NCBI GenBank assembly: GCA_964646355.1
Contig: CAZYEE010000002.1
Location: 1-45,909, forward strand
From: an uncultured archaeon
GTDB lineage: Archaea; Asgardarchaeota; Lokiarchaeia; Helarchaeales; HEL-GB-B
Length of the DNA: 45,909 nucleotides
Direction: 5' to 3'
A program made the position numbers and the translations under genes. Positions within the stretch are counted from its first letter, which is position 1. The number at the start of each line of letters is the position of its first letter. This document shows positions 222-42,043 of the stretch, in pieces. The notes below the pieces were generated by a model, which had not been told where the DNA came from, ran no database searches, and was given only the letters and a program-made list of their open reading frames with translations.

Positions 222-1958
222 GTGTTTTTATTGCCAGATACATCAGATCCAATTAATTCGTTTATTAACGAATTCTCAAAAATTTTCCCAGAGAATATTA
301 GAGATATTTCAATTATAGAGGAATTTATTCAAAATAAAATACCTGGTAAAATCAAGAAGAACTCTGAATTAAAAAAAGAATATAAAACTCTGTTAACAAA
401 ATTTAACGATTTACTCAATGAAATTAAAAATAAACTTAATGATTTAAGAAAAAAATCTAAAAACGTTGATGATTTATCATCAGAACTTAAAGAACTAAAA
501 AAATATGCTTTTGAAAAAAGACTTGATATATTACAAAAGTTGAATCAAATAGCTGAAAAATTAGAAACAAAAGATACTGATTCTATAGAAGAAATTATAA
601 TTCAAGAGGAAAGTTCTATCGAAGCAAAAGTTAATTTAGAAAATTCTGAAATAGAGGAAAAAGGACCAATTGAGAATTTAGAAAAAATTCAGAGTGAGGA
701 AAAAATTTTAGATGTCAAGACTTCATCAAAGGAAAAAGAAGAAGAATTTGTAATAGAAGATAAAATTTCAGAAGAAATTGAAGTAAAAACTGATGAAGCA
801 ATAGAAAATATATCAGAAACATCTGAAATTAGTGATGAAACTGTTGAAATTCCAGATAAAGTTCCTGAGAATTTAGAAATTGAAGCTAAATTAACTGAGA
901 TACCCGAAATTGAGAGCGAGACCATCGAATCTTCAGAAGCTCCGCTTGAAGTCCCTGAAATTGAAGGCGAACCTATTGAAGTCCCAGAAGCTCCGCTTAA
1001 AGTCCCTGAAATCGAGGGCGAACCTATTGAAGTCCCAGAAGCTCCACTTGAAGTCCCTGAAATCGAGGGCGAACCTATTGAAATCCCAGAAGCTCCACTT
1101 GAAGTCCCTGAAATTGGGGGCGAACCTATCGAAGTCCCAGAAGCTCCACTTGAAGTCCCTGAAATTGAGGGCGAACCCATTGAAATCCCAGAAATTCCTG
1201 AACCACCAGTTCCTATAGAAAAACATTTAGAAACAAGTGCATCTTCAATAGAATCAGAACCTACGCCTGGTATAAGTTCTGTCAAGATAACTCAAGAAAT
1301 TAAAAACCAAGAATTACCAAAAACTATTGAGATAGAAAAGAAAAAAGAAGAGAAGAAATTAATAACAGAAGTACCAAGACCGTTTCTATCAGAAACATCA
1401 CCAAGAGAAATAATAGAATCAGTAATTAGAAATAATCCTGAAATAGCTAAATTATTAAATAAAAGAGAAAGTGTTATGGAGTTTAATGTATTATATAAAA
1501 AAGCATTAGAAAAAATAGGAAAGAATGATTTTGATAAAGCATTAAATTTATTGGAAGAATGTCTAAAAGAATCAGTATTATCTAAAGAAGATAAAAGAAG
1601 AAAAGATGTAAATGATAAGATTAGAGAAGTTTGTAGAAAATTAGCCAAAAAATATTATGATATAGGAATGCAAAATTATAAGAATAAGAATTTTAACGAA
1701 ACTATTAAAAATTGGAAAAAATCGCAAGTATATTATAAAAAATTAGGACAAACAAGCAAAGTTAATGAATTAAAAAAATCGATTGAAAAAATTATGAAGA
1801 AATATGGTGTTGGTACAAAAGAGGATATGGAGATCGTCGTAGCGGAAGAGTCGGATAAATCAAAAGTTGCAAAAGTATGTCCAAAATGCAAAAGCCAATT
1901 AGAGTTTATTGTACAATATCAGCGGTTCTACTGTCGTAATTGTAAGAAATATGTTTAA
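222..1958 (+). CDS. Acidic repeat protein with helical (TPR-like) C-terminal region and terminal C4 zinc ribbon; function unknown
   Basis: 578-codon ORF with a GTG start. The N-terminus is K/E-rich and coiled-coil-like. The centre holds tandem 17-aa units EAPLEVPEIEGEPIE(V/I)P. The C-terminus has CPKC...x16...CRNC. No recognisable enzymatic motif. Confidence 0.75.
   Translation: MFLLPDTSDPINSFINEFSKIFPENIRDISIIEEFIQNKIPGKIKKNSELKKEYKTLLTKFNDLLNEIKNKLNDLRKKSKNVDDLSSELKELKKYAFEKRLDILQKLNQIAEKLETKDTDSIEEIIIQEESSIEAKVNLENSEIEEKGPIENLEKIQSEEKILDVKTSSKEKEEEFVIEDKISEEIEVKTDEAIENISETSEISDETVEIPDKVPENLEIEAKLTEIPEIESETIESSEAPLEVPEIEGEPIEVPEAPLKVPEIEGEPIEVPEAPLEVPEIEGEPIEIPEAPLEVPEIGGEPIEVPEAPLEVPEIEGEPIEIPEIPEPPVPIEKHLETSASSIESEPTPGISSVKITQEIKNQELPKTIEIEKKKEEKKLITEVPRPFLSETSPREIIESVIRNNPEIAKLLNKRESVMEFNVLYKKALEKIGKNDFDKALNLLEECLKESVLSKEDKRRKDVNDKIREVCRKLAKKYYDIGMQNYKNKNFNETIKNWKKSQVYYKKLGQTSKVNELKKSIEKIMKKYGVGTKEDMEIVVAEESDKSKVAKVCPKCKSQLEFIVQYQRFYCRNCKKYV
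936..1190 (+). repeat. Five head-to-tail copies of a 51-bp (17-codon) tandem repeat inside the 222..1958 CDS, with degenerate partial copies on both flanks (about 900-935 and 1191-1210)
   Basis: Units start at 936, 987, 1038, 1089 and 1140 (gaagctcc[g/a]cttgaagtccctgaaat...). Only a few substitutions separate the copies. The period is a multiple of 3, so the reading frame is kept. Confidence 0.95.
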
Positions 1959-10253: not shown

Positions 10254-10326
10254 GCCAGGATAGTCTAGTTGGCGAGGCGGCGGCCTGCAGAGCCGCTTTA
10301 CATGGGTTCAAGTCCCATTCCTGGCT
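10254..10326 (+). tRNA. tRNA-Cys (anticodon GCA), no intron, no encoded CCA
   Basis: Manual cloverleaf. Acceptor GCCAGGA/TCCTGGC; D stem GTCT/AGGC; anticodon stem GCGGC/GCCGC with loop CTGCAGA (GCA at 10287-10289). Variable loop TTTAC; T arm ATGGG-TTCAAGT-CCCAT. Discriminator is U, as expected for tRNA-Cys. Confidence 0.95.
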
Positions 10327-14105: not shown

Positions 14106-14228
14106 TTGAATCGAAAATTTTTTAATACTCGAAGATATGTTTTGTATATAGATGTAAAAGTAAGAATAAAAGTCTTCGATAAGTATTAGAATAGTGCAGG
14201 GATAGCCAAGCGGTCAACGGCGCTGGAC

Positions 14229-14255
14229 AATCTGGGATTTTCCCGGATTCCAGAC
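14229..14255 (+). other. tRNA-Leu intron 1 (27 nt), non-canonical position about 32/33
   Basis: A 4-bp helix CTGG(14223-26):CCAG(14050+200-53, i.e. 14250-14253) is flanked by the bulge AC(A) on the 5' strand and ACT on the 3' strand. The inner intron hairpin is AATCTGGGA-TTT-TCCCGGATT. Because GAC is duplicated, the junction can slide by up to 3 nt without changing the mature sequence. Confidence 0.7.
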
Positions 14256-14260
14256 TCAAG

Positions 14261-14276
14261 GTCTATGTGATGTGAA
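14261..14276 (+). other. tRNA-Leu intron 2 (16 nt), canonical position 37/38
   Basis: Relaxed BHB. The central helix is C14255-G14274, (T.T), C14257-G14272, A14258-T14271. The bulges are AGG (14259-61) and AAA (14275-77). The inner pairs are T14262-A14270 and C14263-G14269. Confidence 0.75.
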
Positions 14277-14307
14277 ATCCAGTCGTGTAGACGTTCATGG
14301 GTTCGAA

Positions 14308-14334
14308 AATTCTCCCATTATGGGAGGTCGAAAT
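14308..14334 (+). other. tRNA-Leu intron 3 (27 nt), T-loop position 59/60
   Basis: Strict hBHBh' motif. The outer helix is the T stem ATGGG:CCCAT. The central 4-bp helix is TTCG(14302-05):CGAA(14329-32). The 3-nt bulges are AAA (14306-08) and ATT (14333-35). The inner hairpin is CTCCCA-TTA-TGGGAG. Splicing gives the consensus T loop TTCGAAT. Confidence 0.85.
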
Positions 14335-14360
14335 TCCCATTCCCTGCACTATCCTTATTT

Positions 14361-15368
14361 TTGGTGTCTTTAATGCTGGAATTAAAAAATTATTTTACAA
14401 AGGATAATTTGAAATCTATTTTGATTTCAACTCATTTAAATTCCGATCCGGATGGTATTTTTAGTTCAATAACATTTATATCGTTTATAAAACATTTTTG
14501 TAAAGATTGTGAGGTTAAAATTTATTCAGAAGATTTCACTTTAATTACCAGGAAAATAATTGATGAATTAAATTATTGGAATCTAATAACACAAGATTTG
14601 GATGGAGTAAACCCGGATGTTATTGTTTTAATTGATGTGAATAATATTGAGATTATTGGTAAAATCAAGGATTTAATTATTAATGGGACGCCATTTATCG
14701 TGATAGATCATCATTCAGATATGAAACGGAGAAAATATGAACCTATCTTTTCAATAATAATGGAGGACTATAGTTCAGCTGCTGAAGTTATTTTTGAATT
14801 ATTTGAAAAAAACAATATCAAGTTGAGTCAAGCAGATGCAAAGAATCTGCTTTTAGGAATATTATACGATACTAAGCATTTTACAATAGCTACAAATAGG
14901 ACTTTTCAAATAGTGAATGAAATTTTGAAAAAAGGTGTGAGTTATAGAGATACTATTAGAATGTTAAGATATCCACTTGAACGCTCAGAAAAAATTGCAA
15001 GATTAAAAGCCGGAAATAGAGCAAAAATTCATACAATTGGAGATTGGATAATAGTTTCATCAGAAATTAGCTCATATGAAGCAAGCGCATGTCGGGGATT
15101 ATTGAATTTAGGGGCGGATGTTGCAATAGTTCAATCCCTGAGAAAAAACGAAACGAGGGTGAGTTTGAGGTCCACACAGGAATTTTATGAAAGTACAAAT
15201 ATCTCATTAAGTGATTTATGTATTGAGTTGATCGAAATTTACAAAAATTCTGGAAATTTAGAATTATCAGCTGGTGGACACACTACAGCAGCAGGAATTA
15301 ATACATCAATGAAAAATAAAAGTTTAATAGACACAATTATTGAACTGATTAAAAAAAAATTAAAATAG
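14361..15368 (+). CDS. DHH-family phosphoesterase (NrnA/RecJ-like core, DHH + DHHA1)
   Basis: Motifs STHLNSDPDG, VLIDVNN, VIDHHSD and the DHHA1 motif AGGHTTAAG. The start is ambiguous between TTG 14361, GTG 14364 and ATG 14373. Confidence 0.8.
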   Translation: MVSLMLELKNYFTKDNLKSILISTHLNSDPDGIFSSITFISFIKHFCKDCEVKIYSEDFTLITRKIIDELNYWNLITQDLDGVNPDVIVLIDVNNIEIIGKIKDLIINGTPFIVIDHHSDMKRRKYEPIFSIIMEDYSSAAEVIFELFEKNNIKLSQADAKNLLLGILYDTKHFTIATNRTFQIVNEILKKGVSYRDTIRMLRYPLERSEKIARLKAGNRAKIHTIGDWIIVSSEISSYEASACRGLLNLGADVAIVQSLRKNETRVSLRSTQEFYESTNISLSDLCIELIEIYKNSGNLELSAGGHTTAAGINTSMKNKSLIDTIIELIKKKLK

Positions 15369-15479: not shown

Positions 15480-16337
15480 ATGGACATTATTGTAATAGAA
15501 AATTTGAGTTTTGCATATGCCAGTAATCCGGAAATAGAAGTATTAAAGGATATTAATTTAAGAATCCAAAGAGGTGATTTTGTTTTATTATGTGGACCAA
15601 CTGGATGTGGTAAGACCACATTAATCGAGTGTCTAAATGGGCTGGTCCCACATTTCCATTCTGGGGAAATAAAAGGGCGAATAATTGTAGCAAATAAGGA
15701 GGTCATATATACTCCAGTCCATGAAATGAGTAAATATGTAGGAATAGTATTTCAAAATCCAGAAAATCAATTAATTTCAATGAATGTTGAAAAAGAGCTT
15801 AGTTTTGCATTGGAAAATTTTGGTGTAGATCCCATTGAGATGAGAAAAAGGGTAGACAAAGTTTTAAGAATGTTGAATATAGAAGATTTGAGATATAAAG
15901 CTCCATATGATCTTTCGGGTGGACAACAACAAAGAGTCGCTATTGCATCCATATTAACATTAAATCCTGATATTATTATATTTGATGAGCCTACTTCAAA
16001 CCTAGATCCAGTAAGTACAATACAAATTCTTGAATTAATCAATAACCTCAATAAAAAATATGGTAAAACGATAATCTTAATCGAACATAGATTAGAAATG
16101 GTCCTTAAATATGTTAATAAAATAGTCGTAATGAACGAAGGAAAAATAATTCGAGAAGGGCCACCTGAACAAATAATCATCGATGATAAATTAGAAAATC
16201 TCGGATTAAGAATCCCTAAAATAATCCAATTATATAAATTATTGATAAAAAATGGGTTTAAATTAAATAAAATTCCGCTTACTATTAATGATATGGCAGA
16301 GTTATTAATAAACTTGGTGGAAGGAGAAAATGATTGA
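15480..16337 (+). CDS. ecfA1: ECF transporter ATPase component (EcfA1/CbiO-like)
   Basis: Walker A GPTGCGKTT, signature LSGGQQQR and Walker B IIIFDEPTS. It is followed by a second ATPase and a T component. Confidence 0.85.
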   Translation: MDIIVIENLSFAYASNPEIEVLKDINLRIQRGDFVLLCGPTGCGKTTLIECLNGLVPHFHSGEIKGRIIVANKEVIYTPVHEMSKYVGIVFQNPENQLISMNVEKELSFALENFGVDPIEMRKRVDKVLRMLNIEDLRYKAPYDLSGGQQQRVAIASILTLNPDIIIFDEPTSNLDPVSTIQILELINNLNKKYGKTIILIEHRLEMVLKYVNKIVVMNEGKIIREGPPEQIIIDDKLENLGLRIPKIIQLYKLLIKNGFKLNKIPLTINDMAELLINLVEGEND

Positions 16338-17157
16338 ATGTTTTGGTATCTCATTTACATATCCCGACAATGTTCAGGCGCTTAGGAATATTAATCTCAG
16401 AATAGAGGATAAGGAATTTGTTGCTATAATAGGAGAGAATGGTGCTGGTAAGACTACATTGGCAAAATGTATAAATGGATTATTAAGACCACAGGTAGGT
16501 AAAATATATATAGATGGTGAAGACACGTCCAAGCAGTCTGTCGCCCAATTGGCTAGAAAAATTGGTTTTGTTTTTCAAAATTCAGACCATCAAATTTTTG
16601 CACAAACTGTAGAAGATGAAATTATGTTTGGACTTAAGAATTTAAATTTCGAGAAAGAAGAAATTGAAAAAAGGACTGAAAATATATTAAAAAATTTGAA
16701 TTTAAAACAATATAGAGATGTATCACCATTTAATTTAAGTGGAGGAGAAAGAAAAAGAGTTGCTCTAGCTTCAATTTTATGTTTAGACCCTGAGATTCTA
16801 ATTCTTGATGAACCTACCTTAGGACAGGATTCGCACCAAAAGGAATACCTTATAAAATTGATAAACGATTTACGGGATAAAGGAAAGACTATTCTAATTA
16901 TTACTCACGATATAGAATTTGCATCGGAATATGTACCGAGATTAATTGTGATGAGTAAAGGTAGAATAATTGCGGATGGGCCAAATGATGTAATTTCAAA
17001 TAATGAATTTATTTTAAAAAATGCGAGTCTAATGCTTCCACAATTGCCGGCATTATCAAAAGCATTAAAAAAGCATAAGAAATTTGAAAATCTTAAAGCT
17101 AATTACTCAGATGTATATTCATATTATAACGAAATTAAAAAATATTTGAAGAGTTGA
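16330..17157 (+). CDS. ecfA2: ECF transporter ATPase component (EcfA2/CbiO-like)
   Basis: Walker A GENGAGKTT, signature LSGGERKR and Walker B ILILDEPT. The start overlaps the ecfA1 stop by 8 nt (ATGATTGA). Confidence 0.85.
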   Translation: MIECFGISFTYPDNVQALRNINLRIEDKEFVAIIGENGAGKTTLAKCINGLLRPQVGKIYIDGEDTSKQSVAQLARKIGFVFQNSDHQIFAQTVEDEIMFGLKNLNFEKEEIEKRTENILKNLNLKQYRDVSPFNLSGGERKRVALASILCLDPEILILDEPTLGQDSHQKEYLIKLINDLRDKGKTILIITHDIEFASEYVPRLIVMSKGRIIADGPNDVISNNEFILKNASLMLPQLPALSKALKKHKKFENLKANYSDVYSYYNEIKKYLKS

Positions 17158-17164
17158 AATTAAA

Positions 17165-17938
17165 ATGTCGATAAATACCGCTGCTATACTTGATATTTTT
17201 AAATTTAAGAGAAAAAATACTATTATACATAAATTGGATCCTCGTACTAAACTATATTATGCTTTAGTTATCTCAATCTTAGCCCTAATTTTTGTGGATA
17301 TAATACCATTAATGATTATTTTTGTTTCAACAATACCAATGTTTATAGCAGCTAAGTCATTAAGAAATTGGTATTACACAATCAAGGGGCTTTTTATTTT
17401 AGTGTTAATAATCGTAATAATTGATACGTTATTTATTTCATTTTCGCTTGCCATTTCAATGGTATTTAGGCTATTTAGTCTAATAACTTCTTTTTCGCTA
17501 TTTTTTCTTACAACACATCCGGATGATTTTTCTCAAGCTTTAATCCAAATGCATATACCATATTCCTTTGCGTTTACTTTAAGTTTATCAGTAAGATTTA
17601 TTCCAACTTTAGGTACTGAAACCCAGACTGTAATGGAGGCACAGATGAGTAGAGGTTTGGAACTACAAAAAGGAAATATGTTAAAAAGAGTTAGAAATTT
17701 TATTCCTATTATTGTTCCAATGATTGTATTATCGATAAGAAGAGCATTATTAATTGCTGAAAGCCTCGAATCAAGGGGTTTCGGTGTCTCAGAAACAAGG
17801 ACATATCTTTATAAATTGAAAATGAGCTGGAAAGACTATTTGATAATAGTTTTTCTAACATTAATTCTTGTATTATCAGTAATTTTTGTATATTATATCG
17901 GATTACCACAATTTTTAATATATAAAATTCCTTTTTAA
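17165..17938 (+). CDS. ecfT: ECF transporter transmembrane T component (EcfT/CbiQ-like)
   Basis: Polytopic membrane protein of 257 aa with the conserved Arg-rich coupling helices (...MSRG..., ...ESRGFG...). It lies directly downstream of the two EcfA genes. No S component is in the window. Confidence 0.8.
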   Translation: MSINTAAILDIFKFKRKNTIIHKLDPRTKLYYALVISILALIFVDIIPLMIIFVSTIPMFIAAKSLRNWYYTIKGLFILVLIIVIIDTLFISFSLAISMVFRLFSLITSFSLFFLTTHPDDFSQALIQMHIPYSFAFTLSLSVRFIPTLGTETQTVMEAQMSRGLELQKGNMLKRVRNFIPIIVPMIVLSIRRALLIAESLESRGFGVSETRTYLYKLKMSWKDYLIIVFLTLILVLSVIFVYYIGLPQFLIYKIPF

Positions 17939-17985: not shown

Positions 17986-18942
17986 ATGGAAAATTTGTTG
18001 AAAGTAGTTGATGATATTCATAATATAAGAATTCAAGGAGCCACAAATGTTGCAATTCATGGAATAAAAGCTTTTTCAGAATATATTCAAGCCATAGATG
18101 TAAAAGATTTGGATGAATTAAAGAAAAAAATGGAAAAAGCAAGAAAATTATTGAGTGAGGCTAGACCTACAGAACCAGGATTAATTAACGGATTAATCCA
18201 TGTAATAAATGGTCTGAATATTGACAATATAAAAGAAGATAATCCTATTGAAATTATAAAACACAGGATTGGGATTATAACCGATTATTATATTAATTTT
18301 ATTAAAGAGGCAAAAGAAAAAATTGGAATGATAGGTGCTAGAAGAATAGAAAATGGGAGTATAATTATGACCCATTGCCATTCTTCTGTTGTAACTAATA
18401 TTTTTATTACTGCAAAAAATATGGGTAAAGAATTTCAGGTGATTTGTACTGAAACAAGACCTAAATATCAAGGACGAATTACGGTAAAGGAAATGCTGGA
18501 AAATGGAATTCCTACTACATTGATTGTAGATTCTGCGATGCGATGGATCTTAAAACATAAACAAGTGGACTTGATAATTACTGGATGTGATTCAATTACA
18601 TCAGAAGGTACTGTGATTAATAAAATTGGTTCTAGATTACTTGCGTTGGCTGCTCATGAGATGGATGTGCCATTCTATACCGCTACCACCCTTATTAAAT
18701 ATGATCCAAATACTTCTTTTGGCTATCTGGCTGCAATTGAGCAACGAAGCCCTAATGAGATCTGGGCTGATAGACCTGAGAGTGAGAATTTAAAAATATT
18801 AAATCCTGCATTTGAAACTATTTCAAGAGAATATATAGATGCTTTAATCACAGAGGTTGGTGTTTTTCCGCCCACAATGATTTCGCATATTTATGACAGA
18901 CATTTTGGATGTGTAATAAAAGAATTAAAAAATTTGAGGTGA
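17986..18942 (+). CDS. Ribose-1,5-bisphosphate isomerase (eIF-2B alpha/beta/delta family)
   Basis: eIF-2B-like fold motifs (IRIQGATNVAIHG, MTHCHSS, TETRP..QG, GCDSITSEGTVINKIGS). It sits 6 nt upstream of form III RuBisCO, the classic archaeal AMP-salvage pairing. Confidence 0.8.
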   Translation: MENLLKVVDDIHNIRIQGATNVAIHGIKAFSEYIQAIDVKDLDELKKKMEKARKLLSEARPTEPGLINGLIHVINGLNIDNIKEDNPIEIIKHRIGIITDYYINFIKEAKEKIGMIGARRIENGSIIMTHCHSSVVTNIFITAKNMGKEFQVICTETRPKYQGRITVKEMLENGIPTTLIVDSAMRWILKHKQVDLIITGCDSITSEGTVINKIGSRLLALAAHEMDVPFYTATTLIKYDPNTSFGYLAAIEQRSPNEIWADRPESENLKILNPAFETISREYIDALITEVGVFPPTMISHIYDRHFGCVIKELKNLR

Positions 18943-18948
18943 TTTAGT

Positions 18949-20226
18949 TTGAGTTATGATGATTCCATTTTTGTTTCCACGCCGGAGGAAATAGACCCGA
19001 ATGAGTATGTTATTGCAAAATATATGGTAAATTCAAAATATCCGACGAAAAAAGTAGGTCAGATCATAGCAGCAGAGGAATCTATCGGAACATGGACTAA
19101 ACTTGAACATGATATTGAATTTGTGCATGAAAATTTGGTGGCTAAAGTCTTTGAATATACAAATTCAAATTCTGGAGTCATTGCAATAGCATATCCCGTT
19201 GATTTATTCGATATTGAGACAGGAGGAATTCCGAATTTATTAAGCATTATAGCAGGAAATTTATTCGGTCTAACTGAACTTAAAACAATACGTTTGTTAG
19301 ATGTGGATTTCCCGAAAGAATATGTTAGACATTTTCCAGGCCCAAAAATTGGTATTGATGGTATAAGAAAAATTTGTGGGACTACTGAATCTAAGCGACC
19401 GCATGTGGGCACTATAATAAAGCCCAAAGTTGGGCTTGATCCAAAACAGACGGCATTAGTTGCTTATCGAGCAGCACAAGGAGGGCTCGATCTAATTAAA
19501 GATGATGAGACTCTAACAAATCAAAAATTCTGCCCGTTAGAAGAGAGATTGGTAAATGTAATGGAAAAGCTGGATCAACATAAAGAGGAGACGGGTAAAA
19601 CGGTATTGTACGCAGTAAATATATCCTCTGACTATGATAAACTGCTTGATTTAGCTGATTTTGCCAAAAATAATGGTGCAAACTGTTTAATGATAGACGT
19701 CTTAACATGTGGTTTTAGTGCAGTCAAAATTATCGCGGAAGACGCGTCAATAAAATTACCGATCCATATTCATAGAACAATGCATGGCGCAATAACCAGA
19801 GCTAAAAATTATGGTATTTCAATGCTTACTATAGCAAAACTGGTCCGAATGGTAGGTGGAGATCAACTTCATACTGGAACAGGAGCTGGAAAAATGGGAG
19901 ATGTAGATGAATTACCTGAAATTCAGCAAATTAATAAATTTTTGAGAAGTGATTGGTATGGATTTAAAAAGACATTTCCAGTAGCATCAGGAGGCATTCA
20001 TCCCGGCATTGTGCCCCGAAATATAGAGTTATTGGGCACGGATATAGTTATACAGGCTGGTGGTGGTGTTCATGGGCATCCAATGGGTACTACAGCAGGA
20101 GCAAAGGCTATGATACAAGCTGTTGAAGCATCTATGAAAGGAATTGAGTTAAAGGAATATGCAAAAACGCATAAGGAACTAAAAATTGCAATCGATAAAT
20201 GGGGAGAATTATATAAAAAAGTTTAA
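18949..20226 (+). CDS. rbcL: Ribulose-bisphosphate carboxylase large subunit, form III
   Basis: Catalytic motifs are intact: GNLFG, GLDLIKDDE (carbamylated Lys), HIHRTMHG, GGIHPG and GGGVHGHP. 425 aa. The start is TTG. The next in-frame Met is residue 26, which lies inside conserved sequence. Confidence 0.92.
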   Translation: MSYDDSIFVSTPEEIDPNEYVIAKYMVNSKYPTKKVGQIIAAEESIGTWTKLEHDIEFVHENLVAKVFEYTNSNSGVIAIAYPVDLFDIETGGIPNLLSIIAGNLFGLTELKTIRLLDVDFPKEYVRHFPGPKIGIDGIRKICGTTESKRPHVGTIIKPKVGLDPKQTALVAYRAAQGGLDLIKDDETLTNQKFCPLEERLVNVMEKLDQHKEETGKTVLYAVNISSDYDKLLDLADFAKNNGANCLMIDVLTCGFSAVKIIAEDASIKLPIHIHRTMHGAITRAKNYGISMLTIAKLVRMVGGDQLHTGTGAGKMGDVDELPEIQQINKFLRSDWYGFKKTFPVASGGIHPGIVPRNIELLGTDIVIQAGGGVHGHPMGTTAGAKAMIQAVEASMKGIELKEYAKTHKELKIAIDKWGELYKKV

Positions 20227-31789: not shown

Positions 31790-32302
31790 ATGGACGATTT
31801 AGATTTTAATATTACATTAGGAGAAGTAAAAGGTTATTGGAATTGGAAACATAACATACCCTTATTTAGATTTACCGAGGGTAGAGGCGAAAATTGGAAG
31901 AGAAGATTAAAGGAAGAATTGGAAAAATTAGAGATACTAAAGAAATATGGTAAAGAAAAAATATTCTTTGAGGATATAATTTTAGACGAAAGAAATGACA
32001 GAATTTTTCATTGTCTTAGCAATATAAAAGGTAAGAAAATTGATATTGTTATAAGATTACCCGTGCGATATCCAAAAGATCCACCTCTTGCGGACTTTTC
32101 GGTAGGACCATGGGCATTTCCCAGTGAAGCTGGTATTAGATCTGCATGTTTAGGCCAAATTTACAGTAAATGGGATAGGACCGGAAGGATGGGAGTGGCG
32201 CATTTTGTAGGGATGTTAGGTTCATATATAGCTCTTGCCCTACATTCAATTTCAACCCCAAGAGTAAAAAATGAAAATCTAAAAAGACGAAAAAAGCATT
32301 AA
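31790..32302 (+). CDS. UFC1-like (UFM1-conjugating-enzyme-like) E2, paralogue 1
   Basis: 170 aa, against 167 for human UFC1 as I recall it. WKRRLKEELEKL matches UFC1 WVQRLKEEYQSL. IRLPVRYPKDPP matches IPITYPTTAP. The candidate catalytic Cys120 lies in SACLGQIYSKWDRTGRMGVAHFVGMLGSYIALA, compared with [34 protein letters not shown]. There is no HPN motif, as in UFC1. Confidence 0.8.
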   Translation: MDDLDFNITLGEVKGYWNWKHNIPLFRFTEGRGENWKRRLKEELEKLEILKKYGKEKIFFEDIILDERNDRIFHCLSNIKGKKIDIVIRLPVRYPKDPPLADFSVGPWAFPSEAGIRSACLGQIYSKWDRTGRMGVAHFVGMLGSYIALALHSISTPRVKNENLKRRKKH

Positions 32303-32320
32303 ATTTTTATAAAGAGGGTG

Positions 32321-33157
32321 ATGATCATAGATTTTGCGGATATTGCAGATGAGATAAAATCAGAAATGAGACCATGGACTGAAGTTGAGGTAATTATTTC
32401 CGATATTCAAGGAAATATAAAGTATTCAGATATTTTTTCTCAAAAGTTTTTATTAGCACTCTCAAGATTTATTAAGAAAAAAGGTCCAACTTTTGCAATC
32501 GGGGATTATTACTATATCCAAAATGTTTCTGGTGTCATGCTCTTCAAAACTTCGATGAACAGTATGGTAATTCTTAGAACACAACAAAAATTAGGGATTT
32601 TATTGATCTTTCTTAAAATATTAGAACGTATAGGACTTGAAATTGATATTCTATTAGGAGATTATATTCGAATAGAAAAAACACCACCAAAATATTGTGA
32701 TCAAGAGTTCATTCCCAGAGAAATACCATTATTTAATATCATTGCTAAACCAAATTCTCCAAATTGGCTTGACAGGTTACAAGAGGAATATGATAAATTA
32801 AATTATTTATATAGATTAAGAGATACTTATTCAACATTTAGTATATATAAACAAGCAAATAGTAATAGAATTTTCAAATGTTCATTCCAAGGTATTGTAT
32901 TCGATCTCAGATTAAGCCTTCAATATCCATTTGTTATGCCTATTGCTGATGGCTTTTATTTTGGTCGATGGTTTAATCCTGCAGGAGATCATAAAAATGC
33001 ATGCTTAGGCATATTAAAAAATAGATGGAGACCCGATGGAAGAATGGGAATCGCTCATTTTATTCAATTATTAGGATATTATACCTCTATAGCAAATTCG
33101 AAACCAGTTGAATTTAAGGTAAGACAGCCAAGAGCAATAAATATTCATTTTTATTAA
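32321..33157 (+). CDS. Roadblock/LC7-like N-terminal domain fused to a UFC1-like E2 domain, paralogue 2
   Basis: The N-terminal 115 aa or so fit the Roadblock pattern (EVEVIISDIQGNIKYSD...VMLFKTSMNSMVILRTQQKLGILL). The C-terminal half has WLDRLQEEYDKL, LSLQYPFVMP and NACLGILKNRWRPDGRMGIAHFIQLLGYYTSIA. The Cys codon is at 33002-33004. It starts 15 nt after paralogue 1; GTG is at 32318 and ATG at 32321. Confidence 0.75.
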   Translation: MIIDFADIADEIKSEMRPWTEVEVIISDIQGNIKYSDIFSQKFLLALSRFIKKKGPTFAIGDYYYIQNVSGVMLFKTSMNSMVILRTQQKLGILLIFLKILERIGLEIDILLGDYIRIEKTPPKYCDQEFIPREIPLFNIIAKPNSPNWLDRLQEEYDKLNYLYRLRDTYSTFSIYKQANSNRIFKCSFQGIVFDLRLSLQYPFVMPIADGFYFGRWFNPAGDHKNACLGILKNRWRPDGRMGIAHFIQLLGYYTSIANSKPVEFKVRQPRAINIHFY

Positions 33158-35155: not shown

Positions 35156-35704
35156 CTAAATGTTAATAGGTCTGCTTTTTCGTTCTAATGCATAATAATA
35201 TCCGATCATGGTACAAAAATGTGCAAGACCAAATCTTCCATCAATTCTCCAGCGCTTTATAAGTTTTCCAAAACATTTATAAGCAAGAGAGACATGAAAA
35301 TCACCCTCAGACCTCTGAACTAAAGGAATTTGCTTCGGATATAAAATTGATAACCTTATTTCTAATTTCATAGGTTTTGAACCTTTTGAAAAATAGAAAT
35401 CGGCGCTCCAGATTCTCGTATTATTGCTTTCATGTTTCAAATTGTCAAAAACATAAAAACCTACCGAATGTATGTATTTTTCTTTTAAAATATTAAAAAT
35501 TTCATATTCTTCCTGGACTCGAAGGTTCCATTTGGTCGATCTTGGAGTATAAATATTTTTAAACAATGGTAATTCTTCAAAAATAGCATCGCTTTTAATC
35601 TTAAGTTCGTATGGAGTAAGAAAATTTTTCCGAATAAATTCATTCATATCTATTGAAATATCGTCGAAGTATTTTCGCATATCAAGATAATCTTTGTCCG
35701 TCAA
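35156..35704 (-). CDS. UFC1-like E2, paralogue 3 (most divergent)
   Basis: WNLRVQEEYEIF, IRLSILYPKQIP and YKCFGKLIKRWRIDGRFGLAHFCTMIGYYYALE. The Cys144 codon is at 35273-35275. 182 aa, TTG start. It is the first gene of the E2-JAMM-E1 operon. Confidence 0.75.
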   Translation of the reverse strand: MTDKDYLDMRKYFDDISIDMNEFIRKNFLTPYELKIKSDAIFEELPLFKNIYTPRSTKWNLRVQEEYEIFNILKEKYIHSVGFYVFDNLKHESNNTRIWSADFYFSKGSKPMKLEIRLSILYPKQIPLVQRSEGDFHVSLAYKCFGKLIKRWRIDGRFGLAHFCTMIGYYYALERKSRPINI

Positions 35705-36508
35705 TTTCAGTTCCCATTATTAATAAAATGTTAATTTTATTTAAAGTATTTGAATTTAATATTTTAAAATATAGAGCTCATAATTTAACAAATCATTTTT
35801 GAAAATAACCAGTTTTTTTATTAATGTCTAAAAAATATATCTATAAGGAATTACCTTTTTATTGAAAATATTTGATTCTTTCATTGGAGTAAAATAACCA
35901 TCACGTTTTTTATATCATTTAACCGAAATCATTAAACTAATCCTTGATTTTAATTTTTTTATTTTTGTGGATAAGCTTAATTTTTACACCATTACTAAAA
36001 ATAATAATGGATATTGGATCAAATTAGGAGAATTTTCAAGAAAAATTACACTTTACACTTTACAATCGAAAAAAAGATAAAAATACAATGATGAATTTAT
36101 TAGTAATTTATGAATTAATTCTGAATAATCAGAAAAAAAATAAAAATTCACTGTAAGAATTTTAGGATTAATTTACGGTGATTTTATTTTGCAGACTAAA
36201 AAATCAAAATATTATAATAAAAGTAGTAAACAATACGGCAGACAACACAATAAACAAAAGATTGTTCAATATTTACATGTTTTTAAATCTGTATCACTTA
36301 AAAAATTGAACAAGATATCCGGCTGAACTTTAATGAAATTCAAGAAATAATCAATAATGAATTAAATTCGGGGAGAATTATCGGGGAATTTAAATTTGGA
36401 ATATTTTATAGGGATCTAGATATATCCAAAAAAAAGAAGGAACTATTATTAAAATATATAAATGAAAATGATAAGATTTTTTTAGAGGATGCCTCAAGGA
36501 TCGCCCGA

Positions 36509-37393
36509 TTGAGTCCAAGACAGACTCGTGACTTAATTGATGAATATTTAAATGGAAATATAATTAAAGGGAAATGGAATTCAGAAAAAAATCTATTTAT
36601 CAATTTTGCTGTAGAAAGTGTTTCAAAAGAATTAGAGGTAAAAAGAGATTTTGATTATGTTGGAGGGAATGTACGCTTTAAAGTGGTCGTGAGAAATGTC
36701 ACAAAGATGCCAATAACAGATATTAATGTAATATTAAATGTAGGTGGACAGTACATAATTGATGAAGAGTCCAAAAAGGTTGAGGCATTAATGCCTGGAG
36801 AAACGAGGGGGGTAGATTTTATGCTTACACCAGTCACATGCAGAATATCAAAAATATTAGGACTGGTCACCTATTATGACCCATTCAATGAAATGCATAG
36901 TATTACTATAAGACCAAAGGATATTCGAATTAAATGTCCTTTAGTAATCCCCGCTGATGCAACAAATAGCGAAATAATTGAATGGCAAAAATCATTGTTA
37001 AAGGGTTATAGCGTTATTCAATATAAGGATTTACCACCAAATCATGTTTTTAATATAGTCTGTGATCAAATATCTTCTTTAGATTTAAAATTAATCAGCA
37101 GGAATGATGAAGACCTAATCTCAACTTATGCAGGAATAACAAAAATCTCTAACTCAAAACTTGTGGTAGTCGCTAAAATTAATCGTGATGAAATCAAAAT
37201 AGCAACATGGACTCCATCATTAAAAGAAGCTACGGGGTTTATTGCATATTTAAAGAATCTAATCAATATTGCACTAGATGCATCCCAATTAAAAGTAGGT
37301 ATGGAGAAAATAGGACAAAAAATCATTAGGCTTTTTGAAGTATCTCAAAGATTAATTACATTATACGAGTTTTGTAGAAAAAAGAATCAGTAG
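36509..37393 (+). CDS. Winged-helix + beta-sandwich protein, function unknown; true 5' end probably lies upstream of 36509
   Basis: The WH-like N-terminus is FLEDASRIARLSPRQTRDLIDEYLNGNIIKGKW. The Ig/CARDB-like segment is GGNVRFKVVVRNVTKMPITDINVILNV...LMPGETRGVDFMLTPV. The same frame stays open back to 36302 (69 codons) with no ATG, GTG or TTG in it. Confidence 0.65.
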   Translation: MSPRQTRDLIDEYLNGNIIKGKWNSEKNLFINFAVESVSKELEVKRDFDYVGGNVRFKVVVRNVTKMPITDINVILNVGGQYIIDEESKKVEALMPGETRGVDFMLTPVTCRISKILGLVTYYDPFNEMHSITIRPKDIRIKCPLVIPADATNSEIIEWQKSLLKGYSVIQYKDLPPNHVFNIVCDQISSLDLKLISRNDEDLISTYAGITKISNSKLVVVAKINRDEIKIATWTPSLKEATGFIAYLKNLINIALDASQLKVGMEKIGQKIIRLFEVSQRLITLYEFCRKKNQ

Positions 37394-37434
37394 AGGATTT
37401 ATTAATCCTAATAAAAGAGATAAAATATAAATTG

Positions 37435-38109
37435 ATGAAAATTGATAGAAATAACAAAATAATAAATTATATTGAGCAATGGGAAATAGATTTTGGTACA
37501 AAATATGATGAAAATAATCTTAAAGAAAACATTATATCAAATTTAATATATGATACTTTAAATTGGTTGGAAGAATTAGAAGATTCTATTAATACAAATA
37601 TCGATAATTATTATGCCTCATTTAAAGAGAATATTGAAGCAATTGAAGAAAATAAGAAAAAATTATACGAATTAAGAAAAAATATTAAATTAATACAAAA
37701 AGATTACCTGAATTTAATTCTTAGATATATAATGGTCATCTATAAAAATAGTGGAATTGTTGTTTATTCTTATGCGTTCAGTGGATTTGATATGGATGAA
37801 GATTTAATTTCGGGATTTCTTACAGCTATCGGTTCTTTTGGTACCGAAATAACAAAAAAAGATACTGATATGGAATCGATTAAATATCAAGATTTTGAAA
37901 TAGAGGTGGCAAATGGCACGAATATTAAAGTCGCCTTGATTTTAAATGGGAAAAAAATAGATGTTATTAAAAAATTGATTAGAAAATTTATAAATATGTT
38001 TGAAATGGAATATAAAAATGAATTGAAAAATTGGAGTGGTGATGTTTCTATCTTCAATAATGCTAATAAATTAATTGATGAATGTTTTAATTTTGGTAAT
38101 GAAAATTAA
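37435..38109 (+). CDS. Coiled-coil protein with C-terminal Roadblock/longin-like domain
   Basis: The N-terminal 90 aa or so are helical. The C-terminus (IMVIYKNSGIVVYSYAFSG.DMDEDLISGFLTAIGSFGTEI...IKVALILNGK) fits the archaeal Roadblock/longin-like pattern. TTG is at 37432 and ATG at 37435. Confidence 0.6.
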   Translation: MKIDRNNKIINYIEQWEIDFGTKYDENNLKENIISNLIYDTLNWLEELEDSINTNIDNYYASFKENIEAIEENKKKLYELRKNIKLIQKDYLNLILRYIMVIYKNSGIVVYSYAFSGFDMDEDLISGFLTAIGSFGTEITKKDTDMESIKYQDFEIEVANGTNIKVALILNGKKIDVIKKLIRKFINMFEMEYKNELKNWSGDVSIFNNANKLIDECFNFGNEN

Positions 38110-38119
38110 GGGGACAATC

Positions 38120-41100
38120 ATGATGAAGATAAATAATAAAAAGATTTTTTTCATATTGGTAATAAATATTTTAGTATTTTCCTTTTTAATGAACTTTCTC
38201 GTGAGTTTTTATTCCAGAAATAGTCTTAATCAGAATAATATACCTAATCATGACACAATAAGAAAAATATCAAGTAGTACGGTTTATCCACCATTTTTAC
38301 GTGCCCAAAAGGAATGGTTTACAGAAAATGATACACAGACCTATGACCTAGCAAGTTATGATTTTGACGGAGATAATATATCGGAGATAATTTCGGTAGG
38401 GTTTTATAAAAACGATGCAGATCAAATATTTGGGCAAATTAGGATTTGGAATTTTAGTTTAAATAGAATAAATCTAATAATATCAAAATCATTTAGAGAA
38501 TCGAGCGATATTATATTCCGCGGTATAGAAATTACAGATATAGACAATGATGGAGTAAGTGAATTAATCATAGCCGGGGATTTAGAACCATTAAAAAAAG
38601 GTATAATTACAATATGGAATTATACGAATAATGCATTGGAATTGGAAGCAGAAAAGACATGGGGTTATAATGTTATTGGGCCCTATGTTTTTGGAGTTGC
38701 AGTGAATGATTTTGATAACGATTCTTATTATGAAATTGCTACTATTGGGTATTATTCTGGATATACTTATCTAAATATTTGGAACTATTCAACAAATCAG
38801 ATATTAAATGAATCACAATTTAATTGGAGAAAAGGTGCAGATACCATACCTAATTCAATTGCAGCTGATGATATAAACGGAGATGGAATTATTGAAATAA
38901 TAATAGGAGGTCGAATCTCAAAAACGCCATATAATGCATTTGTTAATATCGTAAAATATGCTAATGGAAGTTTATATAATCTCTATGAAACAGAGTGGGC
39001 TGATGGAAACACTGAAGTTCTTGTCGTAAAGACCTGGGATTTCAATAATGATACTATACACGAGATAATTTCGGGTGGATATACAAAAAAGGACGCACTA
39101 TATTCTGCAATGGAAATTGCTATCTGGGAAATTGATAATAATAGTCTTGTCCTAATTAACGAAACATATTGGTATTCATCATCATCGCATGCAAGATTGT
39201 GGGATTTAGAAATTACTGATTTTGATAATGATGGATTTATTGAAATTATTTCGGGTGGATATATTGGTAGAAAATCTGAATTTAGAATTTGGAATCTTAC
39301 AAACGATAATATAAATTTAGAAGCATCAGCTGAATGGGATACCTATGAGGATTTGACTGGCGGTTTTGACAATGTTGCAGACTATAATTTATTATCCGGA
39401 GATTTTGATTCAGATAATGTACTTGAACTTTTAACATCTATTCAGAATAAGACAAGCCTCAGTGGAGATTGGAAAGTTCAATTCAGAGTTTGGGATGCAA
39501 ACAATTATACGATAATCTTTGAAGATTTTAAAGTAAAATACAATCCAATTTCGCAATGTGTAAATATAAAGACTAAATTAAAATGTACATATCAAGGACA
39601 CGGATATCTAAATGCCTCAGAAATTAAAACAGCTAAATATTATATTAGAAAAAATAATGGGAATGATACTGGGCTATCAGGAAATTTGGTTTATGATTTA
39701 TTAAATGATTCATATTGGTCTGCTATTGTTAATGTATCTATTTTGCCAAAAGGAATTTATTATATAGAACTATTTGCTGATGATGGGCATGTCTCAAACA
39801 ATACAGGATATTTACCTGGAAATCAAAACCAATTCAAAATAGGGTTTGAATTAAATAATTTATACAACTTACAGCTGATAAGTTCCACTGAGTGGATCAG
39901 TAATTCAAGTTCTACATATATTTATGATAAAAAAGTAATTGATATAGATAACGACGGAATTAAAGAAATTATAGTATTCAGTAGAATATTTTTAAGTCCA
40001 AATTTGGCTGAATTACAGGTTTGGAATTTTGTAAATGAAGAATTGATATTAAAAGATACTTTTCAATGGGGTATGGGCGGTTCAACAGACATAATACCGA
40101 GAGCGATTGATGTGGGCAATATTTTAGGGGATGATAACTTAGAAATAGTGTGTGGGTCATATTTTAAAAATGAATCTGGTAAAAATGAGATTCTAATTAA
40201 TATATTTAATTATACTGATGGTAAAATTAAAAATGTTACCGCATTTAAATGGCACTATTATAATGAAACTTGGATCTATGATATGAAAATTGGAGATATA
40301 GACAATGATAACACCAACGAACTAATTACTGGTGGAAGCTTTTTTGAGAATGATCGAGAAAAAGCTTTACTAGCTGTTTGGAATTTTTCTAATAATAAGC
40401 AATCATTAGAAGCCGTAAAAACCTGGATTTATAATCCATATAACGATACTTTTATTTATAGACTTGATATAGCAGATATTAATAATGATAATAACCTTGA
40501 GATCGTTGCTGGAGGGATTATATATATTGGTAAGTTTATAACCGCAGCTTTCTTATCTGTTTATAATTATAGCCATAATATAATATTAAATATGTCATCA
40601 AATCTAATTATTGACGATCCATACGATATGTCTATTACCTATCTTTGTTGTGATGATGTTGATAACGATAATTTGACTGAAATAGTTGCTTCTTTTAAAG
40701 TTGATACGGAAGGTAATTGTACTATTGGTGTATTTAACTTTACTGAAAAGTCCATAAATATTGAAAATTATACTAGAGTATATTTTGGAGTCTCGACAAC
40801 TATAATGAGTACATGCACGGGAGATATCGATAAGGATAATTATACTGAAATTGTATTTACTGGATTCTTGTCAGCTAATCCATCCGATGCCTTTTTCGTA
40901 ATCTATAACAAAACAGGAAACAATTTTCTCAAGGAAAACTTTACTCGTTTTGATATCAATATTAATGATATTATTTACCAAGCAAAAATTTCTGATATTG
41001 ATAATAATGGGATACCTGAATTAATCACATTTTCAAATATATACTATGCAAATCCAATTTCTAAAAATTATGCTCAATTAAGAATTTGGATAGCACCATT

Positions 41101-42043
41101 CTTAAAAATTAAAATAGGTAAAATAACTCAAGATTACAAGAAGGACCTAATTTCTCTCTGGGATATTTCCGTTTATTCTTTTTTACATGGATTTATAAAT
41201 GGTACGGGTTATCATCAGACCAATTTTAAAGTTTATAATGCTACTGGAGAATATACAGGGATAAATGGCATTCTTGAATATAATTTAGATACTCAGAGCT
41301 GGTGTGCAGAAAATATAAATGTATCGAGCCTTTTAGACGGCTTGTACTATGCAATCATATATTTTGAATATTATGATTCATTAGGATTTAGTTTTCATAT
41401 AATAAATGATACAAGTGAATTTGTTATTGACAATACTAAACCTTATTTTTTGGATACACCCAATGATTATCAATATATAGTAGGAACAAGGGGTAATATT
41501 ATAGAATGGATTCCTATGGATCTTCATCCTGGTCAGTATTTTATTTATATCAATGATATTTTGGAAGAATCTGGATTCTGGGAAGCAAATAAATCAATTA
41601 AATTTAATTTAGATGGGTTCAATGTTGGGACATATACTGTTAAAATAGTAATTAATGATTCTTTTTCAAATATTATAACGCATCAATTTACATTAACAGT
41701 CTATAATTCTAATAAACCACCTGAAAATTATTGGTTAATTATATGGATTACTATAATAATCATGGTAATTTCGGTGGCTATATCTATATTTCTTGTAAAA
41801 ACTTATCAGACAAAAAAATCATATCTAAAAGAAAAAACTACCCAAACTTTTGACCAAATTATCAAAAGTATTCGATTTTTAATAGAAGGTAGGGATGAAG
41901 TAAATATAAATGAAATATCTAATAAAATTGGGAAGTCATATGAAGAGACTGAAGAAATAATCGTGTCTTTGACTTATAAGGGTATTTTAAAGGGATTTAT
42001 TGATAAAAATATATTTTATAATGAGGAAAATTTTTTAAATTAA
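38120..42043 (+). CDS. Giant surface protein: signal/anchor helix, two seven-bladed FG-GAP/VCBS-type beta-propellers each followed by an Ig-like domain, a third Ig-like domain, a TM helix and a cytoplasmic winged-helix tail
   Basis: There are 14 Ca-binding-loop-like motifs of the D.D.DG..E(I/L)(I/V) type, 7 per half. Examples are DFDGDNISEII, DIDNDGVSELII, DINGDGIIEIII and, in the second half, DIDNDGIKEIIV, DIDNDNTNELIT, DIDNNGIPELIT. N-x-S/T sequons are abundant. The TM helix YWLIIWITIIIMVISVAISIFLV is at 41729-41797. The track start at 38075 overlaps the upstream gene, whereas ATG 38120 is preceded by AAGGGGA. Confidence 0.85.
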   Translation: MMKINNKKIFFILVINILVFSFLMNFLVSFYSRNSLNQNNIPNHDTIRKISSSTVYPPFLRAQKEWFTENDTQTYDLASYDFDGDNISEIISVGFYKNDADQIFGQIRIWNFSLNRINLIISKSFRESSDIIFRGIEITDIDNDGVSELIIAGDLEPLKKGIITIWNYTNNALELEAEKTWGYNVIGPYVFGVAVNDFDNDSYYEIATIGYYSGYTYLNIWNYSTNQILNESQFNWRKGADTIPNSIAADDINGDGIIEIIIGGRISKTPYNAFVNIVKYANGSLYNLYETEWADGNTEVLVVKTWDFNNDTIHEIISGGYTKKDALYSAMEIAIWEIDNNSLVLINETYWYSSSSHARLWDLEITDFDNDGFIEIISGGYIGRKSEFRIWNLTNDNINLEASAEWDTYEDLTGGFDNVADYNLLSGDFDSDNVLELLTSIQNKTSLSGDWKVQFRVWDANNYTIIFEDFKVKYNPISQCVNIKTKLKCTYQGHGYLNASEIKTAKYYIRKNNGNDTGLSGNLVYDLLNDSYWSAIVNVSILPKGIYYIELFADDGHVSNNTGYLPGNQNQFKIGFELNNLYNLQLISSTEWISNSSSTYIYDKKVIDIDNDGIKEIIVFSRIFLSPNLAELQVWNFVNEELILKDTFQWGMGGSTDIIPRAIDVGNILGDDNLEIVCGSYFKNESGKNEILINIFNYTDGKIKNVTAFKWHYYNETWIYDMKIGDIDNDNTNELITGGSFFENDREKALLAVWNFSNNKQSLEAVKTWIYNPYNDTFIYRLDIADINNDNNLEIVAGGIIYIGKFITAAFLSVYNYSHNIILNMSSNLIIDDPYDMSITYLCCDDVDNDNLTEIVASFKVDTEGNCTIGVFNFTEKSINIENYTRVYFGVSTTIMSTCTGDIDKDNYTEIVFTGFLSANPSDAFFVIYNKTGNNFLKENFTRFDININDIIYQAKISDIDNNGIPELITFSNIYYANPISKNYAQLRIWIAPFLKIKIGKITQDYKKDLISLWDISVYSFLHGFINGTGYHQTNFKVYNATGEYTGINGILEYNLDTQSWCAENINVSSLLDGLYYAIIYFEYYDSLGFSFHIINDTSEFVIDNTKPYFLDTPNDYQYIVGTRGNIIEWIPMDLHPGQYFIYINDILEESGFWEANKSIKFNLDGFNVGTYTVKIVINDSFSNIITHQFTLTVYNSNKPPENYWLIIWITIIIMVISVAISIFLVKTYQTKKSYLKEKTTQTFDQIIKSIRFLIEGRDEVNINEISNKIGKSYEETEEIIVSLTYKGILKGFIDKNIFYNEENFLN

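Follow-up and report, generated by a model that had tools for sequence, protein, structure and literature searches.

A tRNA-Leu(CAA) gene with three introns and a 5-nt anticodon exon in an Asgard archaeon related to Helarchaeota

Contig CAZYEE010000002.1 of an uncultured archaeon, analysed here over a stretch of 45,909 nt (the window), carries at 14196–14348 a tRNA-Leu(CAA) gene divided by three introns into four exons, one of which is a mere five nucleotides long and holds the anticodon. Our reading, to which we give a probability of roughly 0.9, is that this is a functional, single-locus gene of a Helarchaeota-related Asgard archaeon, with introns of the EndA type at positions 32/33, 37/38 and 59/60 that would be spliced out in a set order. 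An earlier note, made from the letters of this DNA, had proposed just these introns and the 5-nt exon, and it proved exact in coordinates and in sequence: removal of the three segments listed in Table 1 leaves an 83-nt class II tRNA-Leu(CAA) that folds into a perfect cloverleaf and is called tRNA-Leu(caa) by ARAGORN.

In the spliced 83-mer the acceptor stem is 7 bp, the variable arm is long and contains a stem of 3 bp, the anticodon is CAA, and G18, G19, A73 and the T-loop TTCGAAT are present; all universal tRNA positions are intact. That excision of the introns restores a canonical cloverleaf is as expected for archaeal introns recognized by EndA at a bulge–helix–bulge (BHB) motif. The CCA end is not encoded after exon 4. 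At 57% GC the mature tRNA stands out from the window (29% GC), in which this locus and a tRNA-Cys gene are the only two intergenic GC spikes. A few bases 3′ of the gene lies the T-rich tract TTATTTTT, likely an oligo-T terminator of the archaeal kind, followed by a GGTG ribosome-binding site and the start of a gene for a DHH phosphoesterase. As the four exons are colinear within 153 nt, a split or permuted tRNA gene was ruled out.

Conservation of the gene and its introns across lineages

The precursor was found base for base in four other assemblies (L001–L004) and is therefore not an assembly artefact. A tRNA gene with matching intron sites also occupies the syntenic position in five other lineages, namely L005 (Hel_GB_B), L008, L043 (a metagenome-assembled genome, MAG, labelled Lokiarchaeota), L044 (without intron 1) and L045, which together with the window make up the ortholog comparison. 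Exons were 94–99% identical within this set (mean 96.5%), intron interiors 57–66% and the upstream intergenic DNA, over 60 nt, 63%, and this combination of conserved exons and introns at background level points to selection on the mature tRNA. The exon differences fall in the D-arm region (positions 16–22), at a single base (window 14293) lying between variable arm and T-stem and at one pair of the variable arm; in L008 the variable-arm stem carries a compensatory change from U:A to C:G. Exon 1 is nearly invariant in the six orthologs, differing in the D-arm region only, and exons 2 and 4 are invariant in all.

The introns are more conserved in shape than in letters. Their hairpins were stabler than those of shuffled sequences in 10 of 11 cases (z of −2.9 to −6.6, with at most 1.8% of the shuffles as stable), the exception being the intron-1 hairpin of L045 (z of −1.6; 7.6% of the shuffles as stable), and the hairpin of intron 3 contains two compensatory pairs. 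As judged from these alignments, the comparison shows strong purifying selection on the exons and intron interiors that drift but keep their predicted hairpins and the bases of their splice motifs.

A natural variant bears directly on intron 1. Introns 2 and 3 are present in L044 and intron 1 is precisely absent, the gene reading ...CTGGAC|TCAAG..., so that the 27-nt segment is a self-contained insertion, placed just where the junction had been predicted; intron 1 is shown to be present or absent between lineages as a unit.

Further variants were among the matches listed in a metagenome scan keyed on exon 1, which were mostly unrelated, intron-less Leu(CAG) genes. Three more distant tRNA-Leu(CAA) genes in this list (L079, 2106–2227, minus strand; L113, 466–584, minus strand; L056, 12328–12423, plus strand) carry a sole intron of 36–39 nt at 32/33 and come from another Asgard lineage, the best named matches being MAGs of Promethearchaeota and Lokiarchaeota. 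Where the clade of the window has CTGG in the exon and CCAG in the intron, these genes have GTGG and CCAC, which is a compensatory double change in the predicted central helix of intron 1, and their bulges are alike (AC+N and AC|U33). Genes with the 32/33 intron alone indicate that intron content is a mosaic across Asgard lineages. L084, from the same list, is a natural intron-less Leu(CAA) gene with the acceptor stem and D-arm of the window gene. An exact exon pattern, GGCGCTGGAC-N(0-30)-TCAAG-N(0-30)-ATCCAGTCG, was also scanned for in species-representative genomes (a set that excludes the genome of the window itself) and gave 33 matches, of which 32 were chance hits in GC-rich bacteria and one was Hel_GB_B; no intron-less gene with this exact pattern was found there.

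Separately, a family of Leu(CAG) genes among the matches listed in the exon-1 scan (L047, L087, L100, L112, L139, L140 and L160) contains introns of about 70–95 nt near the canonical site, with a shared CCCTTTT...AAAAGCG core; L100 has an insertion in the T-loop region as well.

Table 1. Parts of the tRNA-Leu(CAA) locus, with lengths read from the window sequence; positions in the description are those of the tRNA unless in brackets.
Feature	Position in window	Strand	Description
Exon 1	14196..14228	+	33 nt; positions 1-32: acceptor 5′ strand, D-arm, anticodon-stem 5′ strand CUGGA, C32
Intron 1	14229..14255	+	27 nt; non-canonical, 32/33; internal 8-bp hairpin (h′); relaxed HBh′
Exon 2	14256..14260	+	5-nt micro-exon UCAAG: U33, anticodon C34 A35 A36 (14257-14259), G37
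Intron 2	14261..14276	+	16 nt; canonical, 37/38; relaxed motif
Exon 3	14277..14307	+	31 nt; positions 38-59: anticodon-stem 3′ strand, long variable arm, T-stem 5′ strand, T-loop to A59
Intron 3	14308..14334	+	27 nt; T-loop, 59/60; strict hBHBh′
Exon 4	14335..14348	+	14 nt; positions 60-73: end of T-loop, T-stem 3′ strand, acceptor 3′ strand, A73
T-rich tract TTATTTTT	14355..14362	+	Few bases 3′ of the tRNA; T-run at the matching place in all orthologs; likely terminator

Splice motifs and the predicted order of splicing

Splice motifs were assessed by a geometry of a 4-bp central helix (H), which in a canonical intron includes the first two anticodon bases, and two 3-nt bulges (B) that hold the splice sites (PMC4090602), with an outer helix h and a helix h′ within the intron; the relaxed forms (HBh′, hBH and BHL) are those defined in PMC5829648. 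Tested directly in this way, the motifs bear out the grading of the earlier note, strict in the T-loop and relaxed in the anticodon arm. Its description of the T-loop motif also holds: the central helix of intron 3 is TTCG (14302–14305) paired with CGAA (14329–14332), the bulges are AAA and ATT, the T-stem is the outer helix and a 7-bp hairpin forms h′. Intron 3 is strict (hBHBh′) in all six orthologs, with a 3′ bulge of A-N-T and an h′ of 6–8 bp, and its motif has pair probabilities of 0.83–0.99.

Intron 1 contains a copy of the 3′ strand of the anticodon stem, CCAG (14250–14253), which pairs with C27–G30 (14223–14226) in four of four pairs. The HBh′ form recurs in all five orthologs that bear intron 1 and in the three distant sequences, with bulges AC+N and A-(C/U)|U33; there is no outer helix beyond G26:C34, and h′ reaches 8 bp and has a GAAA tetraloop in L005. 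The intron-1 hairpin of the window is shifted by one base, leaving U21 of the intron unpaired. For intron 2 the window gives C32 U33 C34 A35 against UGUG, with a U.U mismatch (three of four pairs), bulges AGG and AAA, and an h′ of 2 bp. Across the orthologs its central helix has all four pairs in L008, L043 and L045 and three of the four in the window (U.U), L005 and L044 (C × A), the bulges follow AG+N and A-N-A, and h′ is almost nil; the anticodon stem serves as its outer helix, but is available only once intron 1 has been removed. A hairpin AGAC-UCAAG-GUCU around the micro-exon of the window was considered and rejected, being conserved in no ortholog.

These motifs overlap. The 3′ bulge of intron 1 (its last two bases and U33) uses nucleotides that the central helix of intron 2 has in its 5′ strand, so the two motifs are mutually exclusive. 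Ensemble predictions for the primary transcripts have the decoy pairing of intron 1 dominating in four of the five precursors, with the true anticodon stem rare: in the full precursor the intron-1 central helix has a probability of 0.88–0.92 in the window, 0.56–0.62 in L008, 0.78–0.80 in L043 and 0.92–0.93 in L045, and the anticodon stem one of 0.00 in the window, 0.03–0.06 in L005, 0.28–0.34 in L008, 0.06 in L043 and 0.02 in L045. In silico removal of intron 1 raises the anticodon stem to 0.73–0.78 in L005, 0.98–1.0 in L008, 0.96–0.98 in L043 and 0.75–0.76 in L045, and the intron-2 helix is predicted at 0.88–0.99 in L008, 0.86–0.97 in L043, 0.70–0.75 in L045 and 0–0.05 in L005.

The following course of splicing is proposed. 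Intron 3, with its strict BHB, would be cut independently of the other two. The 5′ anticodon-stem strand, CUGGA, would in the primary transcript pair with the decoy in intron 1 instead of with positions 39–43, presenting an HBh′ substrate, and intron 1 would be excised and its flanks ligated first, because the motifs of introns 1 and 2 cannot coexist. Refolding would then let the true anticodon stem form and present the canonical intron 2, and a second round of cleavage and ligation would complete the anticodon loop. Removed in this order, the introns would leave the 5-nt exon covalently attached throughout and never a free pentamer. A precedent exists in the tRNAscan-SE 2.0 paper (PMC8450103), which describes closely spaced archaeal tRNA introns of which one is removed before the next BHB forms.

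Cleavage of intron 3 would be within the reach of any archaeal EndA; introns 1 and 2, with their relaxed motifs, imply a need for an endonuclease of broad specificity. By analogy with other Asgard archaea, the enzymes are likely an (alpha-beta)2 EndA with an L1 loop and a ligase of the RtcB type: such an EndA has been reported from four Asgard genomes, of Odin-, Loki-, Thor- and Heimdallarchaeota (PMC5829648), and the annotation of Atabeyarchaeia-1 lists two K01170 EndA genes (data of PMC11291895). On this comparison the endonuclease requirement is plausibly satisfied in the organism studied here.

An alternative that we consider unlikely keeps the gene and its three introns and drops the obligatory order, either with intron 2 leaving first or with both anticodon-arm introns cut in one encounter and the pieces held by the tRNA body or by proteins. 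U33 is preceded by C with intron 1 in place and also without it, since intron 1 itself ends in C; moreover, the intron-2 helix of L008 is predicted even in the full precursor (0.8–0.9), and broad-specificity EndA cuts motifs that have no outer helix (PMC5829648). Against these points, the nucleotides of the intron-1 3′ bulge are also needed for the 5′ side of the intron-2 helix, intron 2 has no outer helix as long as intron 1 remains, simultaneous cutting would free a 5-nt fragment held by at most three base pairs, and the situation of one intron preceding the other is one that the tRNAscan-SE authors already know (PMC8450103).

Several observations weigh against a functional gene with ordered splicing as we describe it. 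Transcription, the splice junctions and the order of splicing are all things that we infer. The intron-1 helix is weakly presented in L005 (0.26–0.37 in the full precursor), and intron 2 of the window itself is the weakest case of the series, given its U.U mismatch and the fact that, with intron 1 gone, the anticodon stem reaches only about 0.2 and the intron-2 helix about 0. The cause of these low values is a competing pairing of intron 2 with the variable arm: 14261–14271 (GUCUAUGUGAU) is complementary over 11 bp, including G.U pairs, to 14282–14292 (GUCGUGUAGAC), and in the predicted folds this pairing, present in no ortholog, outcompetes both the anticodon stem and the intron-2 motif. Geometry is also permissive. 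An exhaustive scan for BHB geometry gave about 47 relaxed and about 0.9 strict matches per shuffled precursor, and in the precursors and splicing intermediates it returned spurious strict matches that would delete exons; as relaxed geometry is so common by chance, it adds little for introns 1 and 2. These two introns are supported by the restoration of the tRNA together with conservation, and geometry is not taken as separate evidence for either. Finally, neither EndA nor RtcB is among the genes of the 45,909-nt window, which was the part of the genome in scope.

The exact boundary of intron 1 also has to be weighed. In the window alone it is ambiguous over four positions, from 29/30 to 32/33, as GAC is the 3′ end of exon 1 and of intron 1 alike, and a junction at 29/30, 30/31 or 31/32 would yield the same mature sequence with an internal exon of 6–8 nt, close to the 7–9 nt that are a common size for internal exons in published Asgard tRNAs. 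The geometry of a 4-bp helix and two 3-nt bulges nevertheless gives 32/33 in eight of the eight sequences that bear intron 1, and any other boundary would give U32 to L045, where intron 1 ends in GAT, although C32 is otherwise invariant, including in the intron-1-less L044. BHB geometry thus places intron 1 at 32/33, as does L045 if mature C32 is assumed to be conserved, and we regard the shifted boundaries as improbable, markedly more so than splicing in no fixed order.

The remaining alternative, raised in the earlier note, of a decaying pseudogene or a chance resemblance to a tRNA is very unlikely, close to negligible, in view of the conservation across lineages: the locus does go uncalled by standard finders, but its exons are 94–99% identical although the neighbouring protein is only about 50–56% identical and the intron interiors are at background, its stems show compensatory changes, its syntenic position and downstream T-run are conserved, its universal tRNA positions are intact and the identical sequence recurs in at least four independent metagenome assemblies.

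Detection by gene finders, host and gene neighbourhood

The expectation that standard tools would miss this gene held true of ARAGORN and of Infernal used with the Rfam model. ARAGORN did not call the unspliced locus with or without its intron mode, finding only tRNA-Cys (10254–10326) in the window, and the Rfam tRNA model matched the unspliced locus neither at its gathering threshold nor with the cutoff relaxed to E ≤ 5. When one anticodon-arm intron was retained in an otherwise spliced sequence, ARAGORN called the gene with that intron; when the T-loop intron alone was retained, it made no call. A search of the window for further hidden tRNAs, by the Rfam model at E ≤ 5 and by a scan for GC spikes, found none. 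The tRNA-Cys(GCA) gene at 10254–10326 (plus strand; 57.8 bits against Rfam) has no intron, so some tRNAs of this genome are uninterrupted.

In the L043 assembly (GCA_014729825.1, WJJF01000245.1) the publicly annotated DHH protein P0007 (2501–3583) begins inside the tRNA gene (2402–2549) and is 360 aa long, compared with 331–341 aa in its relatives, which suggests that the tRNA went unrecognized when this MAG was annotated. Since ARAGORN and the Rfam model miss the gene and a protein call overruns it in L043, the tRNA complements of MAGs of the Helarchaeota and Loki type are probably undercounted. Kaneta et al. had already suspected undetected disrupted tRNA genes in Asgard genomes.

Judging from its proteins and synteny, the host is an Asgard archaeon related to Helarchaeota. 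The best named relatives of the DHH phosphoesterase downstream of the tRNA are in Helarchaeota MAGs (56% identity), followed by Lokiarchaeota and other Asgard archaea; a contig of Hel_GB_B is syntenic, and the gene content of the window is archaeal, with aRF1, a form III RuBisCO beside an e2b2-type isomerase, SMC/ScpB, ThiI, MoaA/MoaE, NadC and a Fae/Hps-like fusion. The gene order is conserved as amidohydrolase, AAA_18 kinase, the gap with the tRNA, DHH, EcfA, EcfA′, EcfT and e2b2, and holds in L005–L008 and L043–L045. Around the distant DHH homologues P0010 and P0011 the upstream context is different and contains no tRNA.

Other features of the window are recorded here for completeness. The ECF transporter module (15480–17938) lies upstream of a pair at 17986–20226 (plus strand), in which a homologue of the e2b2-type ribose-1,5-bisphosphate isomerase directly precedes a form III-like RuBisCO large subunit, as in AMP salvage. 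Inside the open reading frame (ORF) at 222–1958 (plus strand), which encodes a 578-aa protein with no Pfam match, a 51-nt tandem repeat (906–1193; 5.6 copies, 90% match) encodes an acidic, proline-rich unit of 17 residues. A protein of 1322 aa with repeats of the FG-GAP/VCBS type is encoded at 38075–42043 (plus strand), and the nearby ORFs 31790–33157 and 35156–38109 are among several with no Pfam match.

Relation to known multi-intron tRNA genes

Multi-intron tRNAs have been mapped in Asgard genomes by Kaneta et al., and in Atabeyarchaeia and Freyarchaeia introns occur in 92–95% of the tRNA genes, more than half of which have several, many of them non-canonical (Valentin-Alvarado et al. 2024, PMC11291895). 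These archaea belong to the same superphylum as the host of the window, which falls in a different class-level lineage, related to Helarchaeota and Lokiarchaeia. In the same study, the Leu(CAA) genes of both Atabeyarchaeia genomes are 175 nt long and have three introns, of which tRNAscan-SE found one (Supplementary Data 4); the number is that of the window gene, and the positions of the two uncalled introns are not given. In the Freyarchaeia Leu(CAA) gene one intron follows nt 38, and a 31-nt exon separates it from another of 26 nt (PMC11291895), spacings that are those of the 37/38 and 59/60 introns of the window. Internal exons of 7–9 nt account for 21 of the 74 in the table of PMC11291895, and its shorter values of 1 and 3 nt belong to a call contradicted by R2DT (two introns called, one observed) and to a gene flagged 'possible pseudo', which makes 7 nt the minimum credible value there against 5 nt in the window. 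Within this comparison with the Asgard table, the 5-nt exon is at the extreme of the documented pattern.

The earlier note had set the gene among the multi-intron tRNAs of Thermoproteales and a few other archaea. The multi-intron class stands, but the host is an Asgard archaeon near Helarchaeota and not a member of Thermoproteales, a different phylum (the stretch studied here has 29% GC). Thermoproteales, as far as they are covered in PMC4090602 and PMC4033280, have up to three introns per tRNA gene, canonical and non-canonical, including 59/60 (Sugahara et al. 2007, 2008), and according to these accounts they share with the window gene its three introns, its mixed positions and its combination of strict and relaxed (HBh′, hBH) motifs. 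Also described are their need for an (alpha-beta)2 EndA that carries a particular loop, introns so close that one must be removed ahead of the next (PMC8450103) and, for Thermoproteales, the transposition of introns from one tRNA gene to another. The ARMAN-2 intron occupies the same insertion point in the T-loop as intron 3; it is of the relaxed hBH form and is cut by an epsilon2 enzyme, whereas intron 3 is strict hBHBh′. In Caldiarchaeum subterraneum (PMC3293823) one entire intron sets closely related genomes apart at a tRNA locus, much as L044 differs from the other orthologs; the Caldiarchaeum case involves a mobile element and a split fragment, and no mobile element was seen beside the tRNA of the window.

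The gene is a clean, extreme example of a documented Asgard phenomenon and not a new phenomenon, and it leaves current understanding unchanged, because multi-intron tRNAs and the type of enzyme that they need were already established for Asgard archaea. For the same reason it says less about endonuclease type and lineage than had been assumed: the EndA type, high intron loads and a three-intron Leu(CAA) have all been published for this group. A bolder proposal is tentative, with the odds in our view somewhat against it, namely that the 5-nt internal exon is the shortest of any endonuclease-spliced tRNA and is viable only through a decoy-enforced sequence of cutting, ligation, refolding and cutting, and that the 37/38 and 59/60 pair of Leu(CAA) is ancestral across Asgard classes (the Helarchaeota-related lineage, Freyarchaeia and probably Atabeyarchaeia), the 32/33 intron having been gained and lost independently. 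Were the pair ancestral, a shared origin with the canonical intron of eukaryotic tRNA-Leu(CAA) would become testable, since eukaryotic tRNA-Leu(CAA) genes carry a canonical intron as well; in yeast and human tRNA-Leu(CAA) the modification of C34 depends on the intron (PMC4090602).

Beyond its practical value for tRNA annotation of Asgard MAGs, the ortholog set is a natural experiment in which one tRNA occurs with three, two or one introns. In this set a stem decoy encoded by the intron covaries with the exon, two overlapping motifs predict an obligatory order of splicing, and the whole offers a series of substrates suited to testing the Asgard endonuclease and ligase on relaxed motifs and very short exons.

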